IMG/VR virus record: IMGVR_UViG_3300032174_000008
Location: 1 to 52,775 of that record
Length of the DNA: 52,775 nt
Strand: one strand, 5' to 3'
DNA from: a virus
Taxonomy: Duplodnaviria; Caudoviricetes
The notes beneath the pieces were generated by a model. The model did no database searches and was not told the DNA's origin. It saw nothing but the letters and a program-made list of their open reading frames with translations. Below, one piece after another: positions 3,479 to 43,885 of this stretch; the stretch's first letter is position 1; each line of letters starts with the position of its first letter. A program made the position numbers and the translations under genes.

Positions 3479-3726
3479 ATCGACTGCTCCTCGTCATATG
3501 GCACGCCCGCGTTAGTCGCCAAGATCGTAATCAGTTCAGCCGGTCGCATCAGCAACCGGATCGCCTCGTCTTTGGTTTCCAGTTCGCGCTCTAACTCCGC
3601 ATTCCGTATCAACACCGCGCGCACGTCCTCGACGAACAGCGCCGTCGTGCCGCGCTGGTGCTCTGCGGCCACGGCGAGCATGCTTTTGATGCGTTCAATT
3701 GCTTGTTGTGTTATAGTTGTTGACAT
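3475..3726 (-). CDS. Hypothetical protein
   Basis: GGAG SD upstream; translationally coupled to the next gene. Confidence 0.7.
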   Translation of the reverse strand: MSTTITQQAIERIKSMLAVAAEHQRGTTALFVEDVRAVLIRNAELERELETKDEAIRLLMRPAELITILATNAGVPYDEEQSI

Positions 3727-3793
3727 ACAGTTTTCTCCCTGTTGACAGTGCCCGGATCGAAAGTGGTCCGGGCATTTGATTTACGGTTAAACG

Positions 3794-4816
3794 CTACTTT
3801 GCTTTCGGATGGATCGCCCGGATATTGCGGTACGGATTCCCTTTGCTGTTCAGCTTCTTGGACAACTCGTAATCCACCGTAGCCGGGAAGTCGTACCGCG
3901 TAGCCAGTTGCATCGCGTCCACGTTCACCAGCGCGTACACCAGTTCCTTGTCGGCGTCGCTTTTTAGATAGAACATGGCATATTGTGCCTGTTTGCCATC
4001 TTCCAGCACCGGGTACAGGTCGATTTCCACTTTGCCGTCTTTCGCTGTAACCTTCTCGATCTGGTTGATTTCGGCATGCTGAATACCGCCGGTTTGCTGA
4101 ACATCTGGATCGAATGACTTGACCGGGGATGGAGCCGGGGCCGGGGTGTTTTGCGGCAACGCTGACCCTGGAGGGACAGTCGGCGGCGCATTCGTTGGCC
4201 CAACCCGCCGGTCAGCGGTTGACGGTGCCTCATTCGGTGTACGGCTCGATGCGTACCGCCCGCCGTCGCCCAACAGGGTATCCAGTACCGTCTCCAATCG
4301 TTTCACGCCGTCACTGACCATCGAGGAACGCACGGTCAGCAACACCTCTACGTTGTACTGCTTGTGCCACACTTTGACGGTTGCCGAGAACGGCGCTTCG
4401 GCAAGGTTGTCTAGGTTGGCGTTTACCTGTTGCGCGGGTGTTGGTTGCGGTTCGGTTTTCACGGTCGACTCCTCTGGACTGACGTAATCGGTTTCGTCGC
4501 CAACTTCCTCCTCAGCTTCTTTCGTTGGTTGTGCCGTCTTTGGATTCTTGTCAATTTTGACAATGAACGCCGCGATCTTCTTTGCCCAAAAATCGGCGGG
4601 ATTCTTGTCGAACAGCGGCCTCAGTTCAGCCGTGCCGCACGCCGCTTGCAGGATCGCCTTCCGTTTGCCAGCGTTCGCGCCCGGTGCCAGTTCGTCTAAA
4701 GTCGCACTGATTTGCATCTCGAAATCGGCATACGCCGCGTCGATGTCAACTTTGCCGGTGTCGTTGCGCGGGAAGTACGTATCTAACTCGGTGTTCGCTT
4801 GATTTTGTGAAGTCAT
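3794..4816 (-). CDS. Hypothetical protein, possibly ssDNA-binding or recombination
   Basis: 340 aa with Pro-rich linkers and a beta-rich C-terminal domain; AAGGATTAA before ATG; function is a guess. Confidence 0.7.
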   Translation of the reverse strand: MTSQNQANTELDTYFPRNDTGKVDIDAAYADFEMQISATLDELAPGANAGKRKAILQAACGTAELRPLFDKNPADFWAKKIAAFIVKIDKNPKTAQPTKEAEEEVGDETDYVSPEESTVKTEPQPTPAQQVNANLDNLAEAPFSATVKVWHKQYNVEVLLTVRSSMVSDGVKRLETVLDTLLGDGGRYASSRTPNEAPSTADRRVGPTNAPPTVPPGSALPQNTPAPAPSPVKSFDPDVQQTGGIQHAEINQIEKVTAKDGKVEIDLYPVLEDGKQAQYAMFYLKSDADKELVYALVNVDAMQLATRYDFPATVDYELSKKLNSKGNPYRNIRAIHPKAK

Positions 4817-4821
4817 CTCGA

Positions 4822-5088
4822 TTAATCCTTTTTAGCCCGGCTACCGCCGTTTTTCACTGTGAACAATTCGACCAGCGCCTTCCGAGTTATCCCCTGCCGC
4901 GCTGCCGCCCTGACCACTGACGGGTTATCCGCGAGTAACCGGCGCACAATCGCGCCGAATGAGCCGCGCTCCCACGTCATCCCGTATTCGATGGCCGCCG
5001 ATTTCAGCAGCACCTCGACCGGCTCAGGAACGATAAACTGAACCAGTTCCTTGCCGATGCCGTCTTTGCCTGTTTCCCACTTTGCCAT
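4822..5088 (-). CDS. Small DNA-binding protein, ribbon-helix-helix-like
   Basis: LVQFIVPEPVEVLLKSAAIEYG...FGAIVRRLL strand-helix-helix pattern; AGGAG SD. Confidence 0.55.
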   Translation of the reverse strand: MAKWETGKDGIGKELVQFIVPEPVEVLLKSAAIEYGMTWERGSFGAIVRRLLADNPSVVRAAARQGITRKALVELFTVKNGGSRAKKD

Positions 5089-5570: not shown

Positions 5571-5599
5571 ATCATATATCATAAACGAGCGTTTGTCAA
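5571..5599 (-). promoter_or_regulatory. Leftward early sigma70-type promoter
   Basis: TTGACA-N17-TATGAT. Confidence 0.8.
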
Positions 5600-5705
5600 T
5601 AAGCAGTTTTTAAAACTGGTCTAGCGGAGTATAATTACTATCTATCGAAATAGAAAAGCCCGACGCGGTTAACGTCGGGACTTTAAGCCCTGAATTGGAG
5701 GGCAT

Positions 5706-6473
5706 ATGACAGAGTCTAATTCAAACCTGCCTGTTCGTCAACCCGGACAATCGATGTTTGCCGGGTTAAAGCCATCTGGCGACATGTCCAAACCAGAGGC
5801 GTTGACATCTATAAATCAAATCAACAACAAACTGACAGCCATTGAAGGGCATCTAAGTCAAATACGGCGCTTAGTTGTTGAACTGAACGAGCGCAAAGGT
5901 TGGAAAGCGCTTGGCTATACTTCGTTTCGTGAATGCGCTGAAGCTGAGTTTGGAAAGTCAATGCGAACCATTTACAACATGCTTACTTCGGGAATTGTTG
6001 AGCGCAATGTTTTTCCGGACTCGGAGAATTTTGCAGAGTCTGCAAACATACACCCGGTAATACCTGACGTGGTAGCAAAAGAACTGAAAACGCTTGAACC
6101 CGCCGATCAGAAAGCCGTTTACGAGTTTGCCGTTGCGACTGCGCCTGAAGGCAATGTGACGGCACGGTGGGCAAAGGCGACCAGGGTTGTTTACGAGCAA
6201 GCTAAGCTGACGGGCGGCTATGTGGACATCGGCAACGGAGAGAGTACAGCATTAGAAGCTGCTGTCGCTCAAGAAGCACATGAAACAATGCTCCGCCAGA
6301 AACAGCATATTGCCGAGAGCACGAGAAAGAAGATTAAAATCTATAGCGGGCGCGGATTTGTACGCGATGACGGGCTTATCCGGCCTATGGATGACGATCA
6401 ACCTGTCCCGTTCGGGCACTACGTAAAAATAACAATATACGAGGAGGATGAGGAGGAAGATACAACCATCTGA
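5706..6473 (+). CDS. Phage DNA-binding protein (DUF3102-like motif)
   Basis: WKALGYTSFRECAEAEFGKSMRTIYNML motif; GGAGG SD; own -10 TATAAT at 5630-5635. Confidence 0.7.
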   Translation: MTESNSNLPVRQPGQSMFAGLKPSGDMSKPEALTSINQINNKLTAIEGHLSQIRRLVVELNERKGWKALGYTSFRECAEAEFGKSMRTIYNMLTSGIVERNVFPDSENFAESANIHPVIPDVVAKELKTLEPADQKAVYEFAVATAPEGNVTARWAKATRVVYEQAKLTGGYVDIGNGESTALEAAVAQEAHETMLRQKQHIAESTRKKIKIYSGRGFVRDDGLIRPMDDDQPVPFGHYVKITIYEEDEEEDTTI

Positions 6474-6484: not shown

Positions 6485-6513
6485 TTGACACGCCGCGCAA
6501 TATGATATATGAT
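6485..6513 (+). promoter_or_regulatory. Rightward early sigma70-type promoter
   Basis: TTGACA-N17-TATGAT; last 13 nt identical to the leftward promoter. Confidence 0.8.
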
Positions 6514-7304: not shown

Positions 7305-7721
7305 ATGGGAAAACACGCAACTATCAAAGCGCTAGAGCCAGTGTACATAACGCTCAGCGACCGAACCAATCCCGACCTGGGGAACTTTCTCAAAATCAGC
7401 ATGAGCGAACAACTGTTCATCAACGCGCTGTCATACTTTGGAAAAGACTTGCCAACGCCGGTATGCGAGTTTCGATTCAATCGACCGGCAAAGCACCGCG
7501 CCGATTTCGCGTGGATGGAAGCGTGGCTGCTTGTCGAATGTGACGGCGGTACACACAAGCAGGGCGGCGGACGGCATGGCGGGGACGCTGACCGGGTGAA
7601 ACTGAACTTTGCCGCCATCCTCGGCTATCGCGTGTTACGTTTCAGCACCGACATGCTGCAATCCAATCCTGAAACGTGTATCCAGGTGGTGAGTAAAGCG
7701 CTTGCTTATGGCAATCGCTAG
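7305..7721 (+). CDS. DUF559/Vsr-like PD-(D/E)xK endonuclease
   Basis: EFRF...RADFAW...LVECDGGTH...GGRH...D..K.N.A...GYRVLRFS. Confidence 0.85.
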   Translation: MGKHATIKALEPVYITLSDRTNPDLGNFLKISMSEQLFINALSYFGKDLPTPVCEFRFNRPAKHRADFAWMEAWLLVECDGGTHKQGGGRHGGDADRVKLNFAAILGYRVLRFSTDMLQSNPETCIQVVSKALAYGNR

Positions 7722-7827
7722 AAACGAAAACGCCGCCGGTAGAAGGATCAAAACTCCGGTAGCGCTTCCGACTTCACCCAAACATACGAACCACGTTTAG
7801 AATACACGTAAATCGTGAAACTGTCAA
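7721..7827 (-). ncRNA. Small RNA with loop TTTTGATCCTT, including its promoter
   Basis: TTGACA(7827-7822)-N17-TATTCT(7804-7799); hairpin CGCTACCGG/CCGGCGGCG then TTTTCGTTTC. Confidence 0.65.
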
Positions 7828-8153: not shown

Positions 8154-8347
8154 ATACAAAGGGTCTAGGAAAACGCGAAATAGCCCTGCTCCGTGAGTTG
8201 CGCAAAGCTCCACAAACATATACCTGTTGGGATCGTCGGTTCATTGCATTGGCTGATCGCGGGCTTATTGATGGTAAAGGCGTGTATGGAAGTTGGACTT
8301 TCGCCCTTACTGAGAAGGGTCGCGCCTATGTTGATTACTCCCGATAA
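8150..8347 (+). CDS. Small winged-helix-like hypothetical protein
   Basis: GGAGG SD; LADRGLI...ALTEKGRAY. Confidence 0.6.
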   Translation: MNTKGLGKREIALLRELRKAPQTYTCWDRRFIALADRGLIDGKGVYGSWTFALTEKGRAYVDYSR

Positions 8348-8376
8348 ACGACGATCTCGGAAGTAAAGGATCAACC

Positions 8377-12601: not shown

Positions 12602-12604
12602 CCA

Positions 12605-12832: not shown

Positions 12833-12858
12833 TAGAAAGTGTAAAAAGGATCAAAACC

Positions 12859-15772: not shown

Positions 15773-15774
15773 GA

Positions 15775-16131: not shown

Positions 16132-16478
16132 ACGGCAAATGCTGGAGTTTCGGCTAGTCCTTGCGGAACAGGAGGCACTTTAAACCAACATTGCCAGATG
16201 TTAGGCGCTGGCGACTGTAAATGGAAATCGCCCTTTACACTGTCAATCAGCGTCAACGCGGCGTCAGTGTCCGTGCTGTATTCGCAAATTGGTTCCTGTA
16301 TCATGCCGCCTTGGACGCGGTACGGATCGTCGTCAGGACGTGTCGGGCGTGTTCCGTATAGTATCTGTGTCCAATCGCTGACCTGTAAATCTGTATAGCC
16401 GAGTTTCTCCGCTATCAGCTTGTCCAATTCGCGCCCAGCTTCCATTGTTCCCCAGTTGACGGTTTGCGTGTCAGTCAT
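16092..16478 (-). CDS. Phage ABA-sandwich domain protein
   Basis: AGRELDKLIAEKLG...YSTDTDAALTLI...ETPAFAVCRAWL. Confidence 0.75.
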   Translation of the reverse strand: MTDTQTVNWGTMEAGRELDKLIAEKLGYTDLQVSDWTQILYGTRPTRPDDDPYRVQGGMIQEPICEYSTDTDAALTLIDSVKGDFHLQSPAPNIWQCWFKVPPVPQGLAETPAFAVCRAWLAWKESQP

Positions 16479-17368
16479 CGTGTACCTCCTGTCAACAGCG
16501 GTATACCCGTCGCAATATCCAGTCCTAACCGTCTATTCAACGCCAGTACGCTTGGTCGCAAATCGTTTGTAATCATGCCCATGATGCGACAAGCCTCCTC
16601 GAATGATACGCTATCGCGCCCGCGCAACATCTCAGTACATGCAATTTCTGCCGTTCGGACAAGCCCTAAGCCAGCAGGTGTTAACCCGTTTCGTGCACTA
16701 CTTGCACCAGTCTCCGCTTTAATCTGTTTGGCTGTTCGGCTGAACAACCCCTGATATTCGATGTTGGTGAAATCGCCATAGATAATTGCACCGCTTACGA
16801 CGTTTCTCAGTACATCGGTTAAGTCAGTACGACTTACAGCGGCGTCAACCCGATCTGCAATCTGTAGCATGATGTCATCTTGGCTGTAACCCTGTTTCAA
16901 TTTGTCCTTAATGTATTGACGTGGGGTTGTGCCGAGTCGCGCGGCCTCCAAACGCGCTGCGTCTACAAACGCCCCGGCTTGTGCTAGGAATTCTTTGATC
17001 GCTTTCACCAAGGGGCGCTTTTCAGTGGAGCGGAATTCTTGTGTAATCCGATACAGTACTACATCAAGCACGTATTCAGTTTTCACGGTTTGCCCGCTGT
17101 CCGATTTTTCGTCAATCATCAAGGCGTTATTTGAAATAACACCTTTGTTTCTCAACTGTCGGATGGTTAAATCGGTTGCGCCGCCAATGCATCCGTCAAC
17201 CCACTGGCGCACATTGTAGTATTCGCGTTTTCTATGCGTGATATACGAAAGCGGAAACCCAAACTTCTTGGCAACTTGAATCGGTAAGGGTACTTTTGAA
17301 AAGCAGTCTTCACTGTTTGGCTGGTCACCAAAAAGGCTTAGTTGTGTGGTAGAATTCTTAACTGACAT
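16475..17368 (-). CDS. Antirepressor/BRO-like DNA-binding protein
   Basis: C-terminal YGDFTNIEYQGLFSRTAKQIK segment of antirepressor/DinD-like type; AGGAG SD. Confidence 0.55.
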   Translation of the reverse strand: MSVKNSTTQLSLFGDQPNSEDCFSKVPLPIQVAKKFGFPLSYITHRKREYYNVRQWVDGCIGGATDLTIRQLRNKGVISNNALMIDEKSDSGQTVKTEYVLDVVLYRITQEFRSTEKRPLVKAIKEFLAQAGAFVDAARLEAARLGTTPRQYIKDKLKQGYSQDDIMLQIADRVDAAVSRTDLTDVLRNVVSGAIIYGDFTNIEYQGLFSRTAKQIKAETGASSARNGLTPAGLGLVRTAEIACTEMLRGRDSVSFEEACRIMGMITNDLRPSVLALNRRLGLDIATGIPLLTGGTR

Positions 17369-17545
17369 CGGGTCTACTCCTTTGTCAAGCCCGCCGGTTT
17401 AGTCTTGTCCGGCGGGTTCTTTATTTACGATGCTTTTTATTATACCTCGCTTTTTCCAATTGTGATCGCATTGTAACGCCGCCGTCCGTGTTTCGCGGTA
17501 TACTGAGCGCATCAGTCGAAACCGAAAGTAAGAAGGATCAAACCC

Positions 17546-30512: not shown

Positions 30513-30523
30513 TCAGCCTCCTG

Positions 30524-32035: not shown

Positions 32036-32047
32036 TAATAGCGCTCC

Positions 32048-32347: not shown

Positions 32348-32628
32348 TCTCTGCCCCGAAGATCGAAGTTGTTGAAAATGAAGTCGATAACTTGCGCCAT
32401 TTGCGCGATTATCATTAGCTGGTTATGTCCGGTTGTTCCGTGGTGAAAATTAGCGGCGTAATAGTCGGCAAACTCAATTTCCTTTTGCTGGCGTTCGTCA
32501 AAGTATTCGCGCCAATCGTGTTCGATGTCCGTGTCGCTATCTAAGGTAAACATCCGCTCATCGTCAGCTTGCTTAGATAGAATCTCATATAAACGCGGTG
32601 CGCCGTCTTTCGTCACTGGAGCAGGCAT
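32344..32628 (-). CDS. Hypothetical protein
   Basis: Translationally coupled. Confidence 0.65.
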   Translation of the reverse strand: MPAPVTKDGAPRLYEILSKQADDERMFTLDSDTDIEHDWREYFDERQQKEIEFADYYAANFHHGTTGHNQLMIIAQMAQVIDFIFNNFDLRGRE

Positions 32629-33881: not shown

Positions 33882-33895
33882 ATCATAGTTCCCTA

Positions 33896-34549
33896 TTATT
33901 CAGCATAACGACACTTCCAACCTTTATGATTAGAGTACTCGCCCCTAGCCACGCGGCACATGCTGCCTGCTGTTAAACCCCGACTTTCGCTAAACCCCTT
34001 TAGATTGACAAATTCAAATTCTTCGCCATCGGGAGAGGTAGCTATCCAATGTAAACTGTGTTTTAGTCTACATTCATCAGACATCTTAACGCCCTTGCGC
34101 GCTTCGCTCATGCGCTTTCGTGCCTCGGGTGAAGGGATTTTACCTTTATGGCTATCGCTCAATTTCTGACGCATCCCGGGCAAGTTAATTCTTTCTTTTG
34201 CAGCGTCACTTATTTTCTTGCGTGTTTCGGGAGAATGCTCACAACCGTTAGCTTTAGGGCAAATATTAAAGCCCCGATTCCCAAAAGGCTTAAGCTTTTT
34301 GAACCAATACTGCTCGCGCTCAAGAACGTTCCAGGGCATAACCAACTCAAGCACTTCAAACCTAAAAGCATCAATGCCGTATTTGTTATAAGCGTTTTGG
34401 AGATGTGCGTTGCCGTGTTTACCAAGCTTAAGCTTGCTAAAATGCGTATGCCGACGTGCTTGCAAATTTACGGCACTACCGATATAGATTTTTCCATTTG
34501 CCGTACACGTTATCATGTAAATCCCGGATGTTGTTGGTATACTTGCCAT
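33896..34549 (-). CDS. GIY-YIG homing endonuclease (NUMOD3 repeats, NUMOD1-like end)
   Basis: SGIYMITC...IYIGSA...REQYW...HSPETRKKIS...HKGW. Confidence 0.92.
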   Translation of the reverse strand: MASIPTTSGIYMITCTANGKIYIGSAVNLQARRHTHFSKLKLGKHGNAHLQNAYNKYGIDAFRFEVLELVMPWNVLEREQYWFKKLKPFGNRGFNICPKANGCEHSPETRKKISDAAKERINLPGMRQKLSDSHKGKIPSPEARKRMSEARKGVKMSDECRLKHSLHWIATSPDGEEFEFVNLKGFSESRGLTAGSMCRVARGEYSNHKGWKCRYAE

Positions 34550-34632
34550 TGGCTGTGCGGTCCTTTCGCATAGTGCCGTCGGCGGTTTGCCCCGCGTGGA
34601 CGGCGTTTACATTGCCGCTAATTATAACTCAT

Positions 34633-34944
34633 CTAAGGGTTATCGGCCTCAAACGGATTAATCACGCTGTCGGCTAATTCAACCTTTGCCTTGAGCCATT
34701 CAATGTAGTGTGCCATCCACGACGGATGCCGGAACTCTATGATATGCGGACTTATGTTGCCATTGAACTCCTTAGGCTCATGCAACAAAGCCTCAAACAA
34801 TTCCTTCTCCATGTCCGCACGGTACTTGACCCACGCCGCGTCAAGTGACGCCTTTGCGATTTCGACCTTGCGCTTGCCAGCGTCACGCGCCTCTATTTCG
34901 GCGTCGTTTATATCCATAAGCACACCGAATTTCGATTTACCCAT
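34633..34944 (-). CDS. Hypothetical protein
   Basis: ATG overlaps the upstream gene end. Confidence 0.55.
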   Translation of the reverse strand: MGKSKFGVLMDINDAEIEARDAGKRKVEIAKASLDAAWVKYRADMEKELFEALLHEPKEFNGNISPHIIEFRHPSWMAHYIEWLKAKVELADSVINPFEADNP

Positions 34945-35248
34945 GATGCACCACACTTTCCACGATAATCGCCCCGGCACTGAACCCAAACCAATCGAGC
35001 GCGGCGATCAGCCAGCTATCGCCCCGGTACAGCGCCACAGCCAGTGCCACAACAGCACTAACCCACAACGACATGCAAAACACGCAGCAAAAAGCACCGG
35101 CCAATCCATGCCCAACGCACTGACTATACTCATCGTGTCTAACCCCCACGGCATGCCGTAACTTGGCAAACACGTCACCCGGCCCGGCTTCGGTTACGAT
35201 GAGTGAGCTAATTCTGAACGTAACTAACATACATAAAACCTCAAGCAC
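34937..35248 (-). CDS. DUF1360-like membrane protein
   Basis: LVTFRISSLIVTE.GP...F..LR...CVFCMSLWVS; start uncertain. Confidence 0.7.
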   Translation of the reverse strand: MLEVLCMLVTFRISSLIVTEAGPGDVFAKLRHAVGVRHDEYSQCVGHGLAGAFCCVFCMSLWVSAVVALAVALYRGDSWLIAALDWFGFSAGAIIVESVVHHG

Positions 35249-35945
35249 GTCTACACTTCCAGCCTTTATGGTGTTTGGCATAACCGTATGCCACTTGTCC
35301 CATAGCGCTACGATTAAGATTATGCTCGAGACAAAAACGCTGTAAATTTACAATTTTCGCCTCATGCCCATCAGGATCGATAACAACCCACTCGAGCGAT
35401 TTTGAGGCACTCATCTTTTCGCGTATCTCGAGTGAAGGATTTTTGCTTGCGGCACTAAGCTTCGCACGTGTTTCTTCGGTAGGATGCTTTCCCTTGTTCG
35501 CTGGTGATTGTCCTTTGTGAGATACGCTCAGTCTTTCTCGAGTTTCGGCTGAATGATGCTTTCCTTTATTCCATGCCGGTTTTCCAATATTCGAAGCGCT
35601 AATCCTTTGGCGTACTTCCAAAGGAGCGTTAAGCATTGGAGATTCGGCATTACGTGAAACATTAAAACCACGTGGCTCGAATGGTTTTAATTTGTCGAGC
35701 CAATATTGCTCTCGAGCCAATAATGCAAACGGAAAAACGTATTCTAGAACCTTAAACGTGAAACTTTCTTCGCCATACTTGTTCCAAGCGCTTTGCAAAT
35801 GGCGATTACCGTGTTTATTGTGACGTAAGTTAGAGCAATGCTGCTGCATACGCGTGCGCAGATTTGCCGTGCTACCTATATAAATTTTCCCATTTGCAAT
35901 GCACGTGATCATGTAAATTCCCGAAGTTGACGATATACTTTCCAT
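35241..35945 (-). CDS. GIY-YIG homing endonuclease (paralog)
   Basis: SGIYMITC...IYIGST...REQYW...HSAETRERLS...HKGW. Confidence 0.92.
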   Translation of the reverse strand: MESISSTSGIYMITCIANGKIYIGSTANLRTRMQQHCSNLRHNKHGNRHLQSAWNKYGEESFTFKVLEYVFPFALLAREQYWLDKLKPFEPRGFNVSRNAESPMLNAPLEVRQRISASNIGKPAWNKGKHHSAETRERLSVSHKGQSPANKGKHPTEETRAKLSAASKNPSLEIREKMSASKSLEWVVIDPDGHEAKIVNLQRFCLEHNLNRSAMGQVAYGYAKHHKGWKCRRA

Positions 35946-36029
35946 AGCTGATGCACCTCTACTGCATTAGAACCGTTGGCGGTGGCGACCGCGCGAACGG
36001 TATTATCGTTGATTGATATTATACCCCTT

Positions 36030-38702
36030 TTAAAGCGCAGCTACAGGCTGACGCTGAATTGTTGGTGGGGGCGGCGGGATAGGAGTAGATTGCTTTTCCT
36101 CGGCTATTTCTGCTATGGGAGTAAAGCGCTGATCGTTTTGAAGATCTGCCAATTTTACGTAGAATGTCGCACCGCCCATTCGGTATCCATAGTTTGTTTT
36201 TGTTATTGGCCCGTACACTTGCGTTTGTCCGGGCGGCCCGTTGTACACGATCCTCACCAGTTGATCGGGCGTTGGCGGTTGGCCGTTGACGCCCTGGATA
36301 ACCTGCTTGCTGGTTGGCGCATTGTTTTTGCAGCCGCACATTTTGCCTCCTGAGATGTACTCGCCATACTTCTGATTGAACGCTGCGATAATTTCAGCCT
36401 TGATCGTTTCGCCCCGTTCACGCCGCTGGCCGGTCAAATATCGGTATATGAATAATGGCTCAGCCACGCGCGCGCCGCAAATATCGGCCTTCGCAAGATC
36501 CATGAAATATTGGACGTCCTCCCAGGATACCATCGATTCATCGAAGCCGCCGATTTGTTCGTGCCACGCCTTCTTAAGTAGGATGTTCACGGCATGACCT
36601 ACCGGCTTTTGGAACACATCCCCCGTCACAAACTCCGGCGTTTCGTGCCCTTCGAGCATGCCCTCTTTGTTCACCGATAGCCAGTCGGTGTACACGTACC
36701 GCCCGGTTCGCTGGTACATGCGCAACGTCTTTTCGAGGAACGTCGGCATCAAGATGTCATCGGCATCGAGAAACGTCACGAACGGCGCTGTAGCGTGTTT
36801 GACGCCCAGATTACGGGCTGCCCCTGCACCAACGTGCCCCGCCGTATCGATTACGCGCGCCCACGGGAACGGCGCAAGTCCGGGTAGCGGTTCGCCGGTA
36901 TCGTTGACAATGATCGCTTCCCAGTATCGCTCAGTCTGGCGTTCTATGCTGTCAAGGGCTTGCGCTAGATAAGGAATGTGGTATCCGGCCACTGGCACAA
37001 TAACCGATACCTTAGGCCGATCGTAGTTGCGTACCGGGCGCGCAATGCCAGCGGCGGCCAGCGGGTATTGCTTGTCATTTATAAATGGCTTGTCTCCAAC
37101 CCAGTCCGGTTCGGTTTGTTTTCCAGTTCGCACACCTTCAGATAAACTCCCGCTGTGAAGGCGATAATGAAACCATCCGGCATCAGTGACCTGTTTGGCA
37201 CGGAAGCCAAGCGAGACAATGCGCAAGAATAACTCTGCATCCTCAGCCGGTTGATACTGCGAGCGATAGCCTCCCGCTCGACGCCACGCATCACGACGAA
37301 ACATGCAGCACGTTGGCACTTGGTTATGGCGGTCAACTTGTTTCTCCCACGAAAATCCTTTAGGCCACTCGCTGACAGCGCCTAACTTGCCGTCAGCATC
37401 AATCGTCTGCAATCCGGTGAATGCAATGCCCAGCCCGCGATCAGCGTCTAGAGCATCGGCTAACGTTTGCAGAAAGCGCGGATCACCTAACTTGTCATCG
37501 GCATCCAGACAACAGATATAGTCGCCCTTTGCCTCTTTGATGCCGCGATTGCGCGCGTTGGCGACGCCGGAGTTTGGCTGATCGATAACACGCGCGTCAT
37601 ACAGAACCTGGTTTGTATCGAAGCCGGAAACGCTAAGTGCTTCGATTATCGCGTCATGCGACCCGTCGGTTGATCCGTCGTTGACTATAATTAATTCGAC
37701 ATTCCATCCTGTAGTCGGTGCTTTTAACGACTGTTTAGAAACGCTGGCTATCGCCTCACCGACATATTGCGCGTAATTGTGGCACGGAATAATGACGCTA
37801 ATTTTTGGATGTGAATGCGTGTCGAATAGGCTATCGTAAACTTCAGCAATCGAAGCCGCCACGCCCTGCCACGTGAACAGCCGTGCGACTTCGCGGGCGT
37901 TCGCGCCCAACGTTTCGCGGTGCTTGAGACAGTACGCCAACCCTTCAATTAGCCCGTCAATGTCGCCTGGTTCGCACAAAAAACCGTTAATGCCGTGTTT
38001 GACAAGATTCGGCATGTTGCCGTGTGCGTAGCCAAGTATTGGCACTCCTGCAGCCATGAATTCTAGCGCCCCAATGCAAAACGTTTCCTTCGTGGTACAC
38101 AATCCGATAGACGCGCCTCGAATTAGACCTTTCATCACGTCAAAAGTTTGACGCCCGATGACGCGCAAGTTCGGAGTCGCCGCCTGCCCGAACGTGCTCA
38201 GGAAGTGCATCTGTGGCACTTTCTTTGCCAGTTCGGTGATCGGCGTCGGGTCGCACACCGGATCGCTTCGGGTCTTATTCCACAACACATACCCTTGATT
38301 GTTGCCCGGTTCCCACTCGTCAAAGTCGATGGCCCACGGGATCACCGTCGGATTGATGTGGCAATCGCGCCTCAGCAGATCGGCAACCCATTCGCTGGGA
38401 GCGGTTACGACACGCGCCGACATAAAAGAATTCACAACTCCCTGATTGGCACTGACCATCCACGGTTCAATCAGGTGCGGGTAAGCGCTTGGGTATAAAC
38501 CATGGAGATGTGCCACGTCGGGCTGTCTGTCGTTGTGTTGCCCTGCATGTCCAGCAATTAAATCGGCTTCATTTATATTTTCGGTGAGTTGATACCCCCA
38601 CTCGGGTAAAGACTTCTCGAGATGGATTGTTATCGCGTTTATGCTGTTGGTCAGATCGTTTCTCGCATGAGATGGCAATGGCATCATGTAGCATTTACGC
38701 AT
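36030..38702 (-). CDS. Multidomain glycosyltransferase (GT4 + GT2 + GT2 + C-terminal extra domain)
   Basis: ETFCIGALEFMAAGVP (GT-B); ISVIIPCHN...VNDGSTD...ARNRG...LDADD; VSVIVP...ARNLG...LDADD; start 38702 preferred over track 38753. Confidence 0.9.
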   Translation of the reverse strand: MRKCYMMPLPSHARNDLTNSINAITIHLEKSLPEWGYQLTENINEADLIAGHAGQHNDRQPDVAHLHGLYPSAYPHLIEPWMVSANQGVVNSFMSARVVTAPSEWVADLLRRDCHINPTVIPWAIDFDEWEPGNNQGYVLWNKTRSDPVCDPTPITELAKKVPQMHFLSTFGQAATPNLRVIGRQTFDVMKGLIRGASIGLCTTKETFCIGALEFMAAGVPILGYAHGNMPNLVKHGINGFLCEPGDIDGLIEGLAYCLKHRETLGANAREVARLFTWQGVAASIAEVYDSLFDTHSHPKISVIIPCHNYAQYVGEAIASVSKQSLKAPTTGWNVELIIVNDGSTDGSHDAIIEALSVSGFDTNQVLYDARVIDQPNSGVANARNRGIKEAKGDYICCLDADDKLGDPRFLQTLADALDADRGLGIAFTGLQTIDADGKLGAVSEWPKGFSWEKQVDRHNQVPTCCMFRRDAWRRAGGYRSQYQPAEDAELFLRIVSLGFRAKQVTDAGWFHYRLHSGSLSEGVRTGKQTEPDWVGDKPFINDKQYPLAAAGIARPVRNYDRPKVSVIVPVAGYHIPYLAQALDSIERQTERYWEAIIVNDTGEPLPGLAPFPWARVIDTAGHVGAGAARNLGVKHATAPFVTFLDADDILMPTFLEKTLRMYQRTGRYVYTDWLSVNKEGMLEGHETPEFVTGDVFQKPVGHAVNILLKKAWHEQIGGFDESMVSWEDVQYFMDLAKADICGARVAEPLFIYRYLTGQRRERGETIKAEIIAAFNQKYGEYISGGKMCGCKNNAPTSKQVIQGVNGQPPTPDQLVRIVYNGPPGQTQVYGPITKTNYGYRMGGATFYVKLADLQNDQRFTPIAEIAEEKQSTPIPPPPPTIQRQPVAAL

Positions 38703-38811
38703 GGCGGCACATCCAGTGACGATGATGGTTACGCCTACCGTTGGCAACTGCACACATTTTCGTTGTACTTAGTCCGTTCTGACGGCAAAATTCAGTTAAG
38801 TTGTGCACTTC
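38695..38811 (-). pseudogene. Remnant of a third GIY-YIG endonuclease C-terminus
   Basis: EVHNLTEFCRQNGLSTTKMCAVANGRRNHHRHWMCRHA* aligns with the ends of both intact GIY-YIG proteins. Confidence 0.75.
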
Positions 38812-39100
38812 GTTCAATGTCTTCTTGCTCCTGAACAAATCTCATACGGGCATACAGGTTCGCGCTGCCATAATTTCGATACTCAGGTTTGCGCTCCCAA
38901 CCTAAAAAACTGACGGGTTGCCATTTTCCGGGAACATCCCGATTTAGCATTAGTTCGACTTCGCGAACGGCGTCTTCTTTTGTTGCATAGTCGAATTTCT
39001 GGCAATATTCAAAATCAACAATCCCCCACGGATTGTAGTAGATACGATAGACAGTCGGGACCGTAAGGTCTACAACCAAGTGGGGATTTTCGGCTTTCAT
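38792..39100 (-). CDS. Hypothetical protein
   Basis: ATGA overlap with the methyltransferase. Confidence 0.65.
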   Translation of the reverse strand: MKAENPHLVVDLTVPTVYRIYYNPWGIVDFEYCQKFDYATKEDAVREVELMLNRDVPGKWQPVSFLGWERKPEYRNYGSANLYARMRFVQEQEDIERSAQLN

Positions 39101-39702
39101 GCCGTTCGCTCCAAAACCAGCATCGTATGAACCACCTTGACCGACTTCCAGCTATCGGGATTCTCCGCCTTCCAATCTGCCACGGCCTTGCTCACTTCAA
39201 CGTGTAGCGGGTGCGCAACGTGCCCTGGATGTGCGTCGCTAGCGGTCACGGCGTTATCGTGTACCAGCACAAAGCCGCCAACCTTAACCAACGGCGTGTA
39301 CAGCGATAAGTCGGCAAGTGCATCAGTATACGAATGCCCGCCGTCAATGAACAAAACGTCAATAGCTTTGTTGCGCAGTTTCTTCTTCAGTTGAGCGAGC
39401 GTCGCCTTGTCGCTCGAATTGCCGACAATTAGCGGCGGCGGTACTAACCCGGCCTCGGTCAGGTTCGCCGAGTACGCGTCAAGTGGGTTGATCTCAATGC
39501 CGTATACGGTTGCGGTGGGCGCGTATTTCACAAACGCCGCCATTGAGCGTCCGAATTCCACGCCGACATTAACGATTACGCCGCCTTCGGGTACGGTTTT
39601 CGCGTACTCGATCAGCGTATCTTCCTCATCCGTTTCAAGCCAGCCGGGTACATCCGTGTACGGGCTGTACGGTGCATTACCGATCATCGTACCCCCTTTC
39701 AC
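39097..39702 (-). CDS. Class I SAM methyltransferase (Methyltransf_24-like)
   Basis: IVNVGVEFGRS...DVLFIDGGHSY...VKVGGFVLVHD. Confidence 0.88.
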   Translation of the reverse strand: MKGGTMIGNAPYSPYTDVPGWLETDEEDTLIEYAKTVPEGGVIVNVGVEFGRSMAAFVKYAPTATVYGIEINPLDAYSANLTEAGLVPPPLIVGNSSDKATLAQLKKKLRNKAIDVLFIDGGHSYTDALADLSLYTPLVKVGGFVLVHDNAVTASDAHPGHVAHPLHVEVSKAVADWKAENPDSWKSVKVVHTMLVLERTA

Positions 39703-39998
39703 TGCAATCGATTGATAAGCAAGTCGAAGTGGCCTTCTATGGCGGTGCTAGCCCCTTGCGGTGCGCCAAACAACAACGCCACGTACTGCCAAGCGCCGTA
39801 CACCGCCGCCCCTTGCCCGGCAGCCCAGCCGTATCGCGCTTCCAAGTTTGTGAAAGTAGCGCCGTCGGTTTGGTGTTGCAGTAAACCGTATACTGAAAGC
39901 ACTTGCGAAACGGCTTGACGCATCGCATCGCGCGCGTTACCGAGTGCTTGCGCGTCCGAGTTCGCGCTCCGGTTAGTGATTATCTCGTCTGATGCCAT
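39699..39998 (-). CDS. Hypothetical protein
   Basis: AGGAG SD. Confidence 0.7.
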   Translation of the reverse strand: MASDEIITNRSANSDAQALGNARDAMRQAVSQVLSVYGLLQHQTDGATFTNLEARYGWAAGQGAAVYGAWQYVALLFGAPQGASTAIEGHFDLLINRLQ

Positions 39999-40037
39999 CG
40001 TTCATACTCCTATTCGTTAGTTGTCCGTTTCATTCTA

Positions 40038-40769
40038 TCATAGAGGCGTACTCAACGTCGTGATCGCCGCGCCCGACTTCACGTCGCTGAATAGGCTGAA
40101 GCCCGCGAGCCAGCCTTTCCAGTAGGTGCCGCCATTAAGGCGAGCCAGTGTGCAAAGTGCGTTAGTCAGCGAACCTGTCCACGCACCGGCTAGAGTGTGC
40201 GAACTAGGCGCACCGCCGTCTATGTACAATTTAAGCGCATTGCCTGCCTGATCCCATGTCTCAATTATGTTATGCCAACCAGCAGTCACCGCAAGCGATA
40301 CGGTTATCGATGAAATTGACCCGCCTTTTTTGTCATAGATAATGACTGTACTTGCTGTTTCCTTACCGCCCACAACGAAATTATTGGTGTCAACTCCTAT
40401 CGAATAGAAATACTCTGTTGTAGGCCAACTTCCATTGGTGTTTATCCAGATTGAGATCGTACCCTTGGTTGGATCAAACACGCTATTCAACGCCACCGCT
40501 GGCAACTGCCCAAATCCGGTCGTGCCATCAAACAACGGCGCATTGCCCATGCTTGCGCCCGGCCCGGCAAGGTTCGCCAGTGCCACGCCGCCGTTGTATG
40601 TGCCGTTGAGTCCACTGTTGTTCGGGCAAACTATCGTTGTACCGGCGTTCTCGTTCAGCGGGTAGTAGGCAATCAGGTTGCCAAGTCCCTGAACCGCCGA
40701 CTGATACGCCGGAACGCCAGTGCCTCCGCGCCTGAGAAGATACTGGCCTAGAAGATGGTGGAAACTCAA
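40038..40769 (-). CDS. LamG/ConA-like lectin-fold protein
   Basis: LIAYYPLNE...FDG...GTISIWI...WHNIIETWD...LYIDG. Confidence 0.85.
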   Translation of the reverse strand: MSFHHLLGQYLLRRGGTGVPAYQSAVQGLGNLIAYYPLNENAGTTIVCPNNSGLNGTYNGGVALANLAGPGASMGNAPLFDGTTGFGQLPAVALNSVFDPTKGTISIWINTNGSWPTTEYFYSIGVDTNNFVVGGKETASTVIIYDKKGGSISSITVSLAVTAGWHNIIETWDQAGNALKLYIDGGAPSSHTLAGAWTGSLTNALCTLARLNGGTYWKGWLAGFSLFSDVKSGAAITTLSTPL

Positions 40770-40770
40770 C

Positions 40771-41145
40771 TCAGCTTGTCCAGTAGTATTGCAGCGAGTA
40801 GCCGACTTGCACGCCGGTTGACAGGTTGATGATCAGCGCATTGCCATTCTGAGCCTGATCAAAACCTAGACTAATCCCGCGCCCCGGCACGAGCGGCAAG
40901 CATACGCCGTCGCCTTGATTCTGTGCCAACGTTCGCCAAAATGGGGAACCGCCCGCCTTGACGATAATCGTAACCGGCGTCGCGCTTTCGTTTTGCACCT
41001 GGAGCGCGGTGATTACCAATCGTTGCGGTACGTTCGGCTGGGCAATAACCACGTTATCGCCGTTGCCGTTAATGGTTCCGGTTTTGAACAGAAATCCGCC
41101 GGGCACTTGCGGATCTTGCGTGACAACCACATATTCCATTGGCAT
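40771..41145 (-). CDS. Small beta-sandwich, probably virion protein
   Basis: All-beta composition; head-region position. Confidence 0.55.
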   Translation of the reverse strand: MPMEYVVVTQDPQVPGGFLFKTGTINGNGDNVVIAQPNVPQRLVITALQVQNESATPVTIIVKAGGSPFWRTLAQNQGDGVCLPLVPGRGISLGFDQAQNGNALIINLSTGVQVGYSLQYYWTS

Positions 41146-41146
41146 G

Positions 41147-41707
41147 TTAGATTGTTCTCCGTTGCTCTGCCATTGAATATAATGCGAACTTGCTCAAATT
41201 CGCCTCTTTGAACTTCTTCGGTCTACGTGCTTTGATGAACACACCCGGTTCAGACGGATCATCCATCAGCGCGAGTATCTCAAAGTCGGCAAAGATCGCC
41301 CGCATGTCATCACAATTGTAGCGCCAGGCGTCTATCGGGTATTCGTGATATTGAAATCCTTCCGACCGCGTGGTAATGAATAACACGCCGCCCGGTTTCA
41401 ACACGCGTTTGTAATTGCTGATCACCGCGCGCCAGTCGCTAACATGCTCGATTACCTCAGTCGATACCAGCACGTCAAACGAGCGCGCGCCGAACGTTTT
41501 TACAAGATCCTCAGCCGCGCAAATGCGATCAACACAGATACCCGGTACGATGTCCGTGCCAACGTATCGATTACAACCCAGCCGCTCGAAATGCCAGCGT
41601 GCCGAACCGTTCACGTCCTGCGAACCGCTTTCGATAATGTCCTTGCCGAATGCCTCGTCTTTAGCAAGGTTGTCGCGCACGAATTCAAGGCAACGTATAT
41701 TACACAC
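41147..41707 (-). CDS. Class I SAM methyltransferase (Methyltransf_11-like)
   Basis: IESGSQDVNG...FDVLVSTEVIEHV...RVLKPGG...HEYPIDAWR. Confidence 0.9.
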   Translation of the reverse strand: MCNIRCLEFVRDNLAKDEAFGKDIIESGSQDVNGSARWHFERLGCNRYVGTDIVPGICVDRICAAEDLVKTFGARSFDVLVSTEVIEHVSDWRAVISNYKRVLKPGGVLFITTRSEGFQYHEYPIDAWRYNCDDMRAIFADFEILALMDDPSEPGVFIKARRPKKFKEANLSKFALYSMAEQRRTI

Positions 41708-42470
41708 TGATCGTCGTCTTTTCCGTGTCGAGTGTCGAGTGTTGGTAACTTTTGCCGATGTGATCGAAGTACGTGTTTATCCACTCTGGCAACACAGTAA
41801 TCACTGGCGACTGAGGCTCACTCCGCATTTTATCAAGTACCATGTGACTGTACGCCTCCTCAGTCGCGCCCAACTTCAGCCCTTCGGGATAATACCCGTA
41901 GAATTGCGGGTGAAACGTTGCGCGCTTGAGGTGCGGCGTGTTGCTATAAATCCAAAGTGTCGGGGAACCGCTATCCAAAAGTAAGTAACACAGCTTGCCG
42001 AACAACCCCATGCCCTCACGGTAATCGGGTATCCAGTGCGATATGTCGGCCTCCATTTGATGGAGAATACACTGAGTACCACTTGTGCCGCCGAACCGCA
42101 TCATGCCGATTTCCGGCTTGACCTCCATACACGCAATCGCCGCCTGAAGGTCAAGTTCCTTCTGTAGAATTCGGTCATCTTCGACCTGAATTACGAAAGG
42201 TGCACTACTATAACGAAGTGCACGATTTACATTAAACCCCCACCCGCCGTTAACGCCTCGATGTGGCACAAACTCATAGTTTATGAAATTAAATATGTAT
42301 GACTTTGCAAGTTTAGATTGATAATCACCTGGGGAAGCATCATCCGCAATCAAGTATCGAAGTTTATCCTTCGGATAATCAATTTTTTTATGGAGGGCCT
42401 CCATTGTGAGGATTATCTCATTCAAACGATCGTACGTGACGACTATAATATCAACGCGGGGCCACTCCAT
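41700..42470 (-). CDS. GT2-family glycosyltransferase
   Basis: VDIIVVTYDR...IADDAS...NVNRAL...QVEDD...FDHIG. Confidence 0.85.
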   Translation of the reverse strand: MEWPRVDIIVVTYDRLNEIILTMEALHKKIDYPKDKLRYLIADDASPGDYQSKLAKSYIFNFINYEFVPHRGVNGGWGFNVNRALRYSSAPFVIQVEDDRILQKELDLQAAIACMEVKPEIGMMRFGGTSGTQCILHQMEADISHWIPDYREGMGLFGKLCYLLLDSGSPTLWIYSNTPHLKRATFHPQFYGYYPEGLKLGATEEAYSHMVLDKMRSEPQSPVITVLPEWINTYFDHIGKSYQHSTLDTEKTTISV

Positions 42471-43209
42471 TTATTTCAACGCTCCGAACGTGGCTAAAGA
42501 ACTCCAGAATGCTGGACTGTTTTTTGAGAGCCACGCGTTTTCCATATTCTTCAACAAGCCACCCCATAGCATTCTTTTTGCCTTTACTATTGTTGCATCC
42601 ATCGATTCCGTGACAAAGGGGAACAATATTGCCGGGGACTGTATTGCCCCCGTCGCAAACAGGTATCCAGTGGTCAAGCGCCAATGTGTGCCAAAAGCCA
42701 ATAGTACGCCCGCAAATAGCGCAGCGGTTACGCCAATAATCAAGAGCAAATAACCAGTCGTCTTTGGTGAAATCAACAACGGTTTCCAGTTTCTTTGCGC
42801 GCCGTCGCTCAACGGCGATCTTTTGGTTAAGTTGTATTGTTCCTTTATCTCTCCGCCGAATATAAGACTCGCGCGAGCGCTCACGAAAAACATCCCGGTT
42901 ATCTTGATAACGCTTCTTGTGATAGAGCGCACTTTCGGCCTTATGCCTTCGGTAGCGCATTTTATTGGCAGCGCCATATTGCTCTCGGTGTTGTTCGTAA
43001 TGATGATGCTTGTACTCAGGGTTTTTATCAAACCACGCCTTCTTAGATGCCTTAACACGGTCCTTGTGAGTTTCGGTGTACCGATGTTGGTTGACTTTTC
43101 GACAAGCCTTGCACTGTTTATCAAGCCCGGTTGACTTGTTCCGGTAGAACCATTCGGCTGTTGCTGGAAACTCTTGCTTGCACTTCGAACAACGTCTATA
43201 CTCTTCCAT
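42451..43209 (-). CDS. HNH endonuclease with N-terminal zinc ribbon
   Basis: CSKC...CKAC; CAICG...LDHWIP...GGN...NIVPLC...CNNSKG. Confidence 0.9.
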   Translation of the reverse strand: MEEYRRCSKCKQEFPATAEWFYRNKSTGLDKQCKACRKVNQHRYTETHKDRVKASKKAWFDKNPEYKHHHYEQHREQYGAANKMRYRRHKAESALYHKKRYQDNRDVFRERSRESYIRRRDKGTIQLNQKIAVERRRAKKLETVVDFTKDDWLFALDYWRNRCAICGRTIGFWHTLALDHWIPVCDGGNTVPGNIVPLCHGIDGCNNSKGKKNAMGWLVEEYGKRVALKKQSSILEFFSHVRSVEINGVAPR

Positions 43210-43276
43210 AGTGCCTCCTGTTCAGGCGCTCAACCCCCGGTTGTTTTCAGCAACGCGGGGACTTCAATTCAGCTTA

Positions 43277-43885
43277 TTATACCTCAGCACTCGCCATTTT
43301 CTTGATCAGCGCCAGGGTCGCAATGCAATCGCTGAGGGCCGTGTGTCCCCCGCCCGGCAACCGTTGCCATTTAAAATTGCCGTGATACTCGTTGTACTCA
43401 CCAACGAACTCGGCATACGGATTCATGATGTCGATAGTCCGCACTCCGCCTTGAATTAATGAGACATCGGCCCACGTTCCGTCGTTTTTCATGTGGTGCG
43501 ACTTGATGCCAACATGCTTAGCCGACTGCTCAACAATCCGTGTGTCGAAATCGGCATTGTAAATAGCCACATGCAAACCGTCTGTTAAAAGCTGCACAAG
43601 GCTATCCCACACCTGGTCAAACGTCGGCGCGTCCTTGACCATCTCGTTGCTTATGCCGTGAACCGCAAACGCGCGCCCGCGTTCGTCAATCGGCTTGCTC
43701 GGCTTAACCAGCGTGTCAAGTAGCACGTTGCCGTCACTGTCGATCACGGCGATCTGCACGACTTCGGCGCTGTCGTCGAGACCGGTTGTCTCGGTATCCA
43801 AAATAAGGAACTTCTTTGCCGCAAGCTGTTTCATGGCGGCTATCGCGTCGGCGCGAGCACTCAGATAATCAACTTCACTTTGCAT
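43277..43885 (-). CDS. DEDDh 3'-5' exonuclease
   Basis: LDTETTG, VHGI, YNADFD, HTALSDC; start MQSEV after AAAGGA (track extension to 44203 overlaps another gene). Confidence 0.9.
   Translation of the reverse strand: MQSEVDYLSARADAIAAMKQLAAKKFLILDTETTGLDDSAEVVQIAVIDSDGNVLLDTLVKPSKPIDERGRAFAVHGISNEMVKDAPTFDQVWDSLVQLLTDGLHVAIYNADFDTRIVEQSAKHVGIKSHHMKNDGTWADVSLIQGGVRTIDIMNPYAEFVGEYNEYHGNFKWQRLPGGGHTALSDCIATLALIKKMASAEV

Follow-up and report, generated by a model that had tools for sequence, protein, structure and literature searches.

Six genes of one tailed-phage-like virus combine a structured leader with a promoter-like site that lies on the opposite strand within their first codons, and this co-occurrence is non-random. 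The virus is the complete IMG/VR record IMGVR_UViG_3300032174_000008 (52,775 bases, with a 127-base terminal repeat); this whole stretch of DNA was analysed and is referred to as the window. From the sequence, we estimate a probability of about one half that the six sites, numbered as cases 1–6 (Table 1), are convergent-promoter cassettes making antisense RNAs of 56–65 nucleotides (nt), of the kind represented by IS10 RNA-OUT, SymR and P22 sar. The genome looks like that of a tailed phage, with PHROGs matches to terminase subunits, a tape measure protein, tail proteins, an endolysin and a helicase–methyltransferase fusion. PHROGs matches also identify three homing endonucleases, two of which are paralogous GIY-YIG enzymes and one an HNH / endonuclease VII-like enzyme, and all three carry the cassette.

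Co-occurrence of promoter-like sites and structured leaders

An original prediction, made from the letters of the sequence, had described one layout at six unrelated genes, and inspection bore out the six layouts and all the motifs that it quoted. An exact TATAAT stands upstream of five of the six genes as a sense −10 element, as had been described; the best −35 hexamers before it match 1–4 of 6 positions, and none is usable. Downstream of each of the five boxes follows an A-rich stretch and then a GC-rich hairpin (hairpin 1). RNAfold shows hairpin 1 and a second short hairpin around the Shine–Dalgarno sequence (SD) in all six leaders, where the original prediction had spoken of the second hairpin as usual. 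The gap between the start codon and the antisense −10 is 6, 4, 10, 3, 3 and 4 nt in cases 1–6, respectively. A second promoter element is present as an upstream TG in cases 1, 3 and 4 and as a 5-of-6 −35 hexamer at 17 base pairs (bp) in case 2; the TG of case 4 (TGGTATACT at 34535–34543) had gone unrecorded. By sequence match, the antisense promoter-like sites of all six cases rank between 7 and 158 among 105470 positions. The genes are not all unrelated: because cases 4 and 5 are paralogues, the cases amount to five independent ones. The view that two of the genes encode DNA-binding proteins found no support either, since the proteins of cases 1–3 have no Pfam family and only that of case 2 has a PHROG, of unknown function. 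Language-model leads name no family for the case 2 protein, and those for the case 3 protein point weakly to antirepressor or Bro-like proteins.

The two features were compared across a set of 64 genes, which comprises 71 greedily chosen open reading frames (ORFs) minus seven that lie opposite the local coding strand and have no family match (297–647, 1999–2199, 8165–8374, 15731–16183, 17809–18015, 32076–32375 and 34739–35161). Starts were assigned by an automatic SD rule, and some of them, such as 10629 and 23625, are doubtful. When the genes are ranked by the score of the best antisense promoter at a gap of 3–10 nt, the top six are the six cases (13.2, 10.5, 10.3, 8.6, 8.3 and 7.8); the next-best gene scores 7.5, and none of the other 58 reaches 7.8. 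When they are ranked by the folding energy of the opposite-strand RNA over positions −62 to +3, the lowest six are again the six cases (−29.6 to −21.4 kcal/mol). Promoter score and leader fold use non-overlapping sequence, and −62 to +3 was the first fold span tried. Among 64 genes, identical top sixes have a hypergeometric probability of 1.3e-8; if the paralogues are treated as one gene (five of 63), the value is about 1.4e-7.

Further comparisons were made with a claim-independent set and with other phages. The former was defined as the genes led by an exact sense TATAAT, with the two paralogues counted once (n = 6); shuffling that preserves local composition gave p-values of 0.001, 0.005, 0.007, 0.0625, 0.28 and 0.90 (Fisher's combined p 2.6e-5). 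Synonymous recoding with each gene's own codon usage gave p-values of 0.004–0.042 for the six cases, and values of at most 0.05 were obtained for 8 of the 64 starts versus 7 of 192 internal control windows. The external set contains the 673 of 1422 phage ORFs that have an ATG start and an SD of at least 4 nt, 667 of them with sufficient flanking sequence. The weakest promoter score claimed for the six cases is reached by 28 of these 667 starts. The original prediction depended on such −10/−35 pairs being rarer at starts that lack the hairpins, which they are: none of the other 58 genes of this genome has an equal pair, and in other phages 1 of 20 TATAAT-led genes does. Nor is the combination a general property of phages, as only 2 of the 26 external genes whose antisense leader is equally stable reach such a score. 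Two further ideas were rejected. An antisense −10 enrichment is not a general feature of phage gene starts, as other phages have no peak at a gap of 3–4 nt and their TATAAT-led genes show no association. Unusual stability of the leader hairpins as such was likewise discarded, since a loose hairpin scan did not set them apart among 90-nt upstream windows.

The structure of the leaders is biased towards the antisense strand. G·U pairs tell the two strands apart because each becomes a C·A mismatch on the other strand, and the 12 hairpins contain 14 G·U pairs in their antisense folds versus 2 in their sense folds; in 10 of the 12, the antisense fold is the more stable one. Case 1 hairpin 1, for example, has 12 pairs including 2 G·U on the + strand and 9 pairs with 0 G·U on the − strand, and case 4 hairpin 2′ has 9 pairs including 3 G·U on the + strand and 6 pairs on the − strand. 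Among controls, one sense terminator (1969–2004) has a clear strand difference and, like the three further small units, folds more stably on the strand to which it belongs; the other three control terminators show little strand difference. Over whole leaders, the antisense-minus-sense energies of cases 1–6 are −4.9, +0.4, −4.0, −5.8, −6.2 and −3.5 kcal/mol, that is, the antisense fold is more stable in five of six, against a mean of +1.7 for the other 58 genes (Mann–Whitney p = 0.0028). The corresponding means are +1.78 for the 667 external genes (31% negative) and +2.8 for 61 leaders of GIY-YIG homologues, which are the usable ones among 80 loci (the rest being short of the N-terminus, without upstream sequence, or duplicates). 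G·U pairs and folding energy together support, at the sequence level, an RNA structure that resides on the antisense strand.

The two paralogous leaders add a comparison within the genome. Between cases 4 and 5, all 13 of 13 consensus pairs are kept through 3 compensatory changes and 1 one-sided change, loops and tails have diverged, and BLAST similarity ends at the start codon; this conservation of pairs points to selection on the leader structure. Opposite-strand T-tail scores of 3.04, 3.47, 4.33, 2.85, 3.35 and 2.10 were obtained for cases 1–6. A T-rich tail thus lies on the antisense side in cases 1–3 (in case 1, 3.04 on the + strand versus 1.91), and case 5 is borderline; sense-side tails score 1.91–2.36, but 3.42 in case 5. 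The U-tract had been called weak in all three endonuclease cases, which fits cases 4 and 6 but not case 5. In cases 2–6, the antisense −10 ends 7–9 nt before the base of the first stem-loop, so that transcription from a normal start site would set this stem at the 5′ end of the RNA.

Table 1. Genes, sequence elements and predicted antisense RNAs of the six cases (positions in the window; aa, amino acids; z, z-score)
Feature	Position	Strand	Details
Case 1 gene	3475..3726	−	83 aa, no family
Case 1 hairpin 1	3749..3774	−	Between two genes of one operon, no sense TATAAT
Case 1 hairpin 2	3721..3747	−	SD GGGAG in loop, start codon in 3′ arm
Case 1 antisense extended −10	3709..3717	+	TGTTATAGT, score 8.6, rank 97 of 105470 positions
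Case 1 predicted antisense RNA	3724..3786	+	About 58–63 nt, z −3.44
Case 2 gene	5706..6473	+	255 aa, phrog_464 (function unknown), opens the rightward arm
Case 2 sense −10	5630..5635	+	TATAAT
Case 2 hairpin 1	5655..5685	+	Followed by CTTTTCTATTT on − strand, tail score 3.47
Case 2 hairpin 2	5687..5703	+	GCCCT..AGGGC, around SD
Case 2 antisense promoter-like site	5713..5741	−	TTGACG-17-TAGACT, score 13.2, rank 7 of 105470
Case 2 predicted antisense RNA	5648..5706	−	About 56–59 nt, z −5.22
Case 3 gene	16475..17368	−	297 aa, no family
Case 3 sense −10	17439..17444	−	TATAAT
Case 3 hairpin 1	17390..17416	−	+ strand tail TTCTTTATTT, score 4.33
Case 3 hairpin 2	17362..17388	−	SD in loop, start codon in stem
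Case 3 antisense extended −10	17345..17355	+	TGTGGTAGAAT, score 7.8, rank 158
Case 3 predicted antisense RNA	17362..17426	+	About 63–65 nt, z −5.32
Case 4 gene	33896..34549	−	GIY-YIG homing endonuclease, 217 aa
Case 4 sense −10	34621..34626	−	TATAAT
Case 4 hairpins 2′ and 1	34552..34604	+	Hairpin 2′ 34552–34574, hairpin 1 34575–34604
Case 4 antisense promoter-like site	34515..34543	+	ATGTAA-17-TATACT, score 10.3, rank 30
Case 4 predicted antisense RNA	34550..34614	+	About 63–65 nt, weak T tail (2.85)
Case 5 gene	35241..35945	−	GIY-YIG homing endonuclease, 234 aa, paralogue of case 4
Case 5 sense −10	36018..36023	−	TATAAT
Case 5 hairpins 2′ and 1	35948..36001	+	Hairpin 2′ 35948–35970, hairpin 1 35972–36001
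Case 5 antisense promoter-like site	35911..35939	+	ATGTAA-17-TATACT, no TG, score 8.3, rank 117
Case 5 predicted antisense RNA	35946..36010	+	About 63–65 nt
Case 6 gene	42451..43209	−	HNH / endonuclease VII-like homing endonuclease, 252 aa
Case 6 sense −10	43276..43281	−	TATAAT
Case 6 hairpins 2′ and 1	43210..43260	+	Hairpin 2′ 43210–43230, hairpin 1 43235–43260
Case 6 antisense promoter-like site	43174..43202	+	TTGCTT-17-TATACT, score 10.5, rank 24
Case 6 predicted antisense RNA	43209..43272	+	About 64 nt, poor T tail (2.10), z −3.70

From these elements we infer a mechanism in which each site would be a pair of convergent promoters about 95–100 bp apart. The sense side would consist of a −10-only TATAAT promoter in five cases and, in case 1, of read-through from the gene's own operon, yielding an mRNA whose 60–70 nt leader would contain, besides the GC-rich hairpin, a short one presenting the SD. 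The antisense side would be a host sigma-70-type promoter in codons 3–14, with either an extended TGn −10 or a −35 element at 17 bp. Transcription from it would begin within a few bases of the start codon (predicted starts at about −1 to +7, a geometry that makes the transcript fully complementary to the SD and the start codon), cross the whole leader and end at the GC-rich hairpin and the T-rich tract, giving RNAs of 56–65 nt. The A-rich beginning of the sense leader would double as the tail of the antisense terminator, and the RNA would therefore be complementary to the entire leader. At its 5′ end it would have a stem-loop that places the anti-SD within or next to a loop of some 7 nt, followed by a terminator hairpin and a U tail. 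By analogy with RNA-OUT and SymR, such an RNA may pair with the leader of its own gene, with the result that ribosome binding is blocked or the duplex is cleaved, and head-on transcription could add interference. In net effect, all three homing endonucleases would be held in check, together with a small ORF, the first rightward gene and a protein that is possibly antirepressor-like.

Homologues of the endonucleases bear on whether such a cassette is inherited with its gene. The recurrent layout, with its prediction of a short antisense RNA over the SD and the start codon, has gained sequence-level support from the co-occurrence of promoter-like site and leader, the G·U pairs, the folding energies and the T tails of cases 1–3, but the accompanying idea of a portable module has not. 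The leaders share no sequence except for the two paralogues, and although all three homing endonucleases of this genome carry the cassette, a comparable leader, with similar antisense stability, occurs in 0 of the 61 GIY-YIG homologues from elsewhere; a cassette travelling with the GIY-YIG family was rejected on these grounds. The closest GIY-YIG homologues, at two loci on viral contigs (L079 and L080), have a TATAAT- or TATAGT-like box of their own upstream. Their leaders also contain related hairpins and, next to the ATG, a short one whose loop holds the SD, without the strong antisense-strand bias seen in the phage. A promoter-imposed constraint on the N-termini found no support: the N-terminal residues cited for cases 4 and 5 are features of the family, and the closest homologues conserve Ser-Ile and Gly-Ile-Tyr with other codons (Ser-Ile is encoded there as TCT ATC and TCT ATA).

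Counter-evidence and rival explanations

Several observations weigh against a reading of the six sites as antisense cassettes. Promoter-like sites scoring at least 7.8 number 153 in the genome versus 151–179 in shuffled copies, and an excess is seen only above a score of 12 (14 versus 7–9); because the genome total equals that of the shuffles, each lone site is weak evidence. Antisense TAnnnT hexamers with at least 4 of 6 matches fall within the gap range in 14 of the 64 genes, compared with a gene-body rate of 3.9%, but a column shuffle that preserves position-specific composition yields a mean of 7.4 (p = 0.007), which reflects AT-rich first codons. Matches at 5 of 6 positions number 6, versus 2.1 from the column shuffle (p = 0.0185), and in the other phages 93 hexamers with at least 4 of 6 matches lie in the gap range over 673 gene starts, so that at most 13.8% of genes have one. 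The weakest claimed score is also reached by 11 of the 61 GIY-YIG homologue starts, since hexamers resembling a −10 arise from Ile-Tyr codons. The ATGTAA taken as a −35 in cases 4 and 5 corresponds to the I-Y-M codons of the catalytic GIY motif and the −10 lies on the conserved Ser-Ile pair; since the closest homologues keep these residues through other codons, much of the promoter motif there is supplied by the protein. Cases 4–6 have only 3-of-6 −35 hexamers, case 5 additionally lacks the TG, and the antisense T tails of cases 4 (2.85) and 6 (2.10) are weak.

The choice of parameters and the available sequence material weigh in the same direction. The gap range of 3–10 nt was the choice of the original prediction, made after seeing the data, and the overlap of the top sixes falls to 3–5 with antisense folds of 50–75 nt, to 2–3 with sense folds and to 1 or 0 with a 90-nt span. 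Loosely defined promoter–terminator pairs are not enriched in general (23 versus 22 in a wrong-strand control), and this more inclusive formulation was abandoned. The promoter matrix consists of position frequencies of Escherichia coli sigma-70 promoters, applied to a phage whose host may be another bacterium. The evidence comes from a single genome and its five independent cases, and no relatives were found in which conservation could be compared: megablast and tblastn searches against phage records gave no matches, viral contigs contained no close relatives of case 2, case 3 or 3794–4816 and a single match, at 23%, to 36030–38753, and a metagenome scan with 43277–44203 gave best identities of 38–45%. 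A set of 73 loci have only the helicase in common, and orthologues of the case genes occur in 0–2 of these. The runs matching 33850–43350 were two soil-metagenome DNA runs and no RNA run; over 24501–44500, the first of these gave what is likely the source contig and the second gave 38 short pieces, with no differences in the 8 that were inspected. An Rfam scan of the window gave 0 matches, and no tRNAs were found.

An account confined to the sense strand, which we regard as unlikely, holds that promoter, stem-loops and SD hairpin act only on the sense mRNA, by stabilizing it, by attenuating read-through or by presenting or masking the SD in the manner of PeSL cassettes and the leaders of T4 homing endonucleases, and that the antisense hexamers are by-products of AT-rich first codons in recently acquired genes of low GC content. 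In its favour, the five TATAAT promoters are real, as are the hairpins, and the closest GIY-YIG homologues likewise have TATAAT/TATAGT-like boxes and a hairpin whose loop holds the SD. The cassette genes are indeed of lower GC content (0.44–0.49 in five of six, where the genome has about 0.53 and the surroundings of the endonucleases 0.47–0.49), antisense −10-like hexamers are common at gene starts in general, and the genome total of promoter-like sites is at chance level. What such an account leaves unexplained is the strand of the structure, namely the 14 versus 2 bias in G·U pairs, the more stable antisense fold in five of six leaders against both the genomic and the external trend, and the antisense-side T tails of cases 1–3, as well as the exact match of the two top-six lists and the low p-values under the gene-specific synonymous and local-composition nulls. 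The antisense bias of hairpins and tails would suit any RNA made from that strand, in keeping with a view of the sites as insulators, with antisense-facing terminators stopping stray opposite-strand transcription before it reaches the sense promoters and with merely incidental promoter-like sites. Terminators of this orientation exist, as 9% of the mapped terminators of Pseudomonas phages are described as antisense to genes (PMC10914365). We nevertheless consider insulation quite unlikely here, as the SD stem-loop, which is not a terminator, is antisense-biased too (case 4, with 9 pairs including 3 G·U versus 6 pairs, and cases 5 and 6 alike), and neither the association with promoter scores nor the spacing of 7–9 nt between −10 and stem base in cases 2–6 is accounted for.

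The hexamers could also be signals of the sense strand. AGTNTA at +7/+8 might be read on mRNA or DNA by a nuclease or by a phage translational repressor, of which RegA is an example, and its reverse complement TANACT would then only resemble a −10 element. The motif occurs at offset 6 or 7 in 7 of the 64 genes (58 sites in the whole window) versus 0 of 673 in other phages, it is found in two reading frames, and two of its carriers (starts 49318 and 52090) have no intergenic leader upstream. All seven carriers have their starts at 5706, 9403, 34549, 35945, 43209, 49318 and 52090. This explanation seems very improbable to us: the motif is absent from cases 1 and 3, an unbiased k-mer scan is borderline after correction (AGTATA and AGTTTA each 3 versus 0.01 expected, about 233,000 tests), and the TG and −35 elements and the antisense bias of the hairpins are left without explanation.

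Comparison with known antisense systems

IS10, SymR and P22 sar are single cis-antisense RNAs whose promoter lies inside the target gene, and P22 sar, with a length of about 68 nt, covers the ant ribosome-binding site. RNA-OUT of IS10/Tn10 is a 69-nt antisense RNA transcribed opposite the transposase gene; complementarity of its first 35 nt to the translation initiation region lets it block the binding of ribosomes (PMC5006887). Its far end overlaps the sense promoter region, with an end at nt 47, and pIN mutations destabilize RNA-OUT (PMC5006887). The cassettes described here resemble RNA-OUT in the size of the predicted RNA, the convergent promoters and the SD and start codon as target. In contrast, IS10 has one copy of the system per element, which acts mainly when the element is multicopy, whereas six sites are present in one phage genome here; moreover, the RNA predicted here from sequence alone would span the whole leader and carry the anti-SD on a separate 5′ stem-loop.

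SymR and symE form an E. coli pair resembling type I toxin–antitoxin systems: the promoter of SymR lies within the reading frame of symE, SymR represses symE translation, and two silent mutations in the −10 element abolished SymR (PMC1891008). The target protein of SymR is nuclease-like and potentially harmful, as are those of three of the six genes here, but symE is a single, SOS-regulated locus on the E. coli chromosome and shares no homology with anything in this genome. Type I toxin–antitoxin pairs provide an analogy only, for the nuclease genes. P22 sar is a small phage antisense RNA that inhibits antirepressor synthesis (PMC5415839). It is similar to case 3, with its weak antirepressor-like leads, and to case 1, whose target is likewise intercistronic; unlike the present sites it is a single instance, located in the immI region.

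The sense half of the cassettes is reminiscent of the PeSL cassettes of T4-type phages, which are small intergenic units placed ahead of ORFans and variable genes; each combines a sigma-70-like promoter with a GC-rich stem-loop, an SD and a start codon (PMC2839356, PMC4122927). PeSL units possess a full −35/−10 promoter with an upstream AT-rich tract, a stem-loop in or beside the promoter terminates upstream sense transcription, and the units are recombining repeats (PMC2839356). Three of these four defining features are missing here. Instead of a strong −35/−10 promoter with an AT tract, the −35 hexamers match 1–4 of 6 positions; about 20 nt separate the −10 from the downstream stem-loop, whose tail is on the opposite side; and an alignment of seven leaders has a mean column identity of 45% with 6 invariant columns, which does not qualify as a repeated sequence. 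The placement is shared, with an SD and a start codon at the end of the unit and, behind it, the three homing endonucleases and the three genes that have no Pfam family. The antisense promoter-like site is an addition with respect to PeSL.

Antisense RNAs have also been linked to endonuclease genes. The CfrI antisense RNA of cyanophage S-PM2 lies between psbA and a homing endonuclease gene (PMC12197685), and an EcoRI antisense transcript is linked to the endonuclease gene (PMC3141266). Both share the endonuclease link with the cassettes, differ from them in size, position and architecture, and neither is a repeated module. In Pseudomonas phages, antisense RNAs and antisense-facing terminators have been mapped that carry no assigned function (PMC10914365). 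The literature searched thus contains general phage antisense RNAs and antisense-facing terminators and no repeated module of the present kind, within a coverage that excludes supplementary tables (for example, the 20 antisense RNAs of PMC10914365), which could hold similar cases. What would be new is the appearance of one architecture at six sites of the same phage, all its homing endonucleases included.

Further promoter-like units and what the cassettes would mean

Besides the six cases, the genome contains three more promoter-then-terminator units of 45–70 nt, all on the − strand (2283–2185, 7827–7719 and 9378–9298). The first two have identical hexamers (TTGACA-17-TATTCT, score 14.0, genome ranks 3 and 4) and a hairpin with a T tract about 20–30 nt further on, predicting RNAs of about 62 and about 70 nt, respectively. 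The predicted RNA of the unit at 2185–2283 has CCTCC in its unpaired 5′ part, and the unit at 7719–7827 lies opposite the rightward operon, between 7305–7721 and the next gene. The third unit (TTGTAA-17-TATACT, score 12.0) faces a hairpin followed by TTTTTCTATT, and its predicted RNA of about 45 nt is antisense to the leader of 9403–10284. This leader has a sense box of its own (GGGGTATACT), the A-rich motif TAAATAGAAAAA as in cases 2 and 3, and TAAACT directly after the start codon.

Individual promoter-like sites were noted elsewhere. The two best promoters of the genome, at 5571–5599 (−) and 6485–6513 (+), have identical TTGACA-17-TATGAT hexamers that match at 11 of 12 positions. Because the ATG at 5575 is overlapped by the left promoter, the real start of that gene is more likely the ATG at 5541 (64 aa). 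At the start of the helicase–methyltransferase gene, an antisense site at 12838–12865 (−; TTGACA-16-TACACT, score 13.6, rank 6) has its −10 element 6 nt past the ATG at 12829, and its −35 element overlaps an alternative ATG at 12859. A TATAAT at 1960–1955 (− strand, site 1946–1960) stands 6 nt before an ATG at 1948–1946 and directly after a strong terminator (2004–1969), and the mRNA transcribed from it may be leaderless. The ORF 17399–17806 (135 aa, no family) crosses a bidirectional terminator at 17754–17772 and the case 3 TATAAT, reaching into the loop of the case 3 hairpin, and is probably not a gene; a TATAAT at 17877–17872, together with the terminator at 17754–17772, predicts an RNA of about 110–120 nt. 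Finally, 18 nt from the start of 41700–42470 and inside it, an antisense site at 42444–42449 (+; TTCAAA-17-TATAAT, score 12.9) is directed into the 3′ end of the HNH endonuclease gene.

A wider and more tentative idea, which we hold to be rather doubtful, is that the six cassettes and at least three further units of 45–70 nt form a genome-wide layer of small antisense RNAs that the phage has built onto invading or risky genes. Selfish nucleases would in this way be tamed by antisense RNAs from embedded promoters, an antitoxin-like means of domestication that arose convergently at each site and was not brought in with the gene. If the six sites are antisense cassettes, such silencers would assemble repeatedly from a leader hairpin, an A-rich leader start that serves as the terminator tail of the opposite strand, and a few codon choices, and they would provide a concrete mechanism by which a phage limits the expression of selfish nucleases. 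They would also furnish a sequence-only rule for uncultivated viruses, combining the antisense promoter score, the antisense-strand fold and the strand bias of G·U pairs. One architecture occurring six times in a 52.6-kb phage, on every homing endonuclease that it carries, would exceed the single textbook cases.

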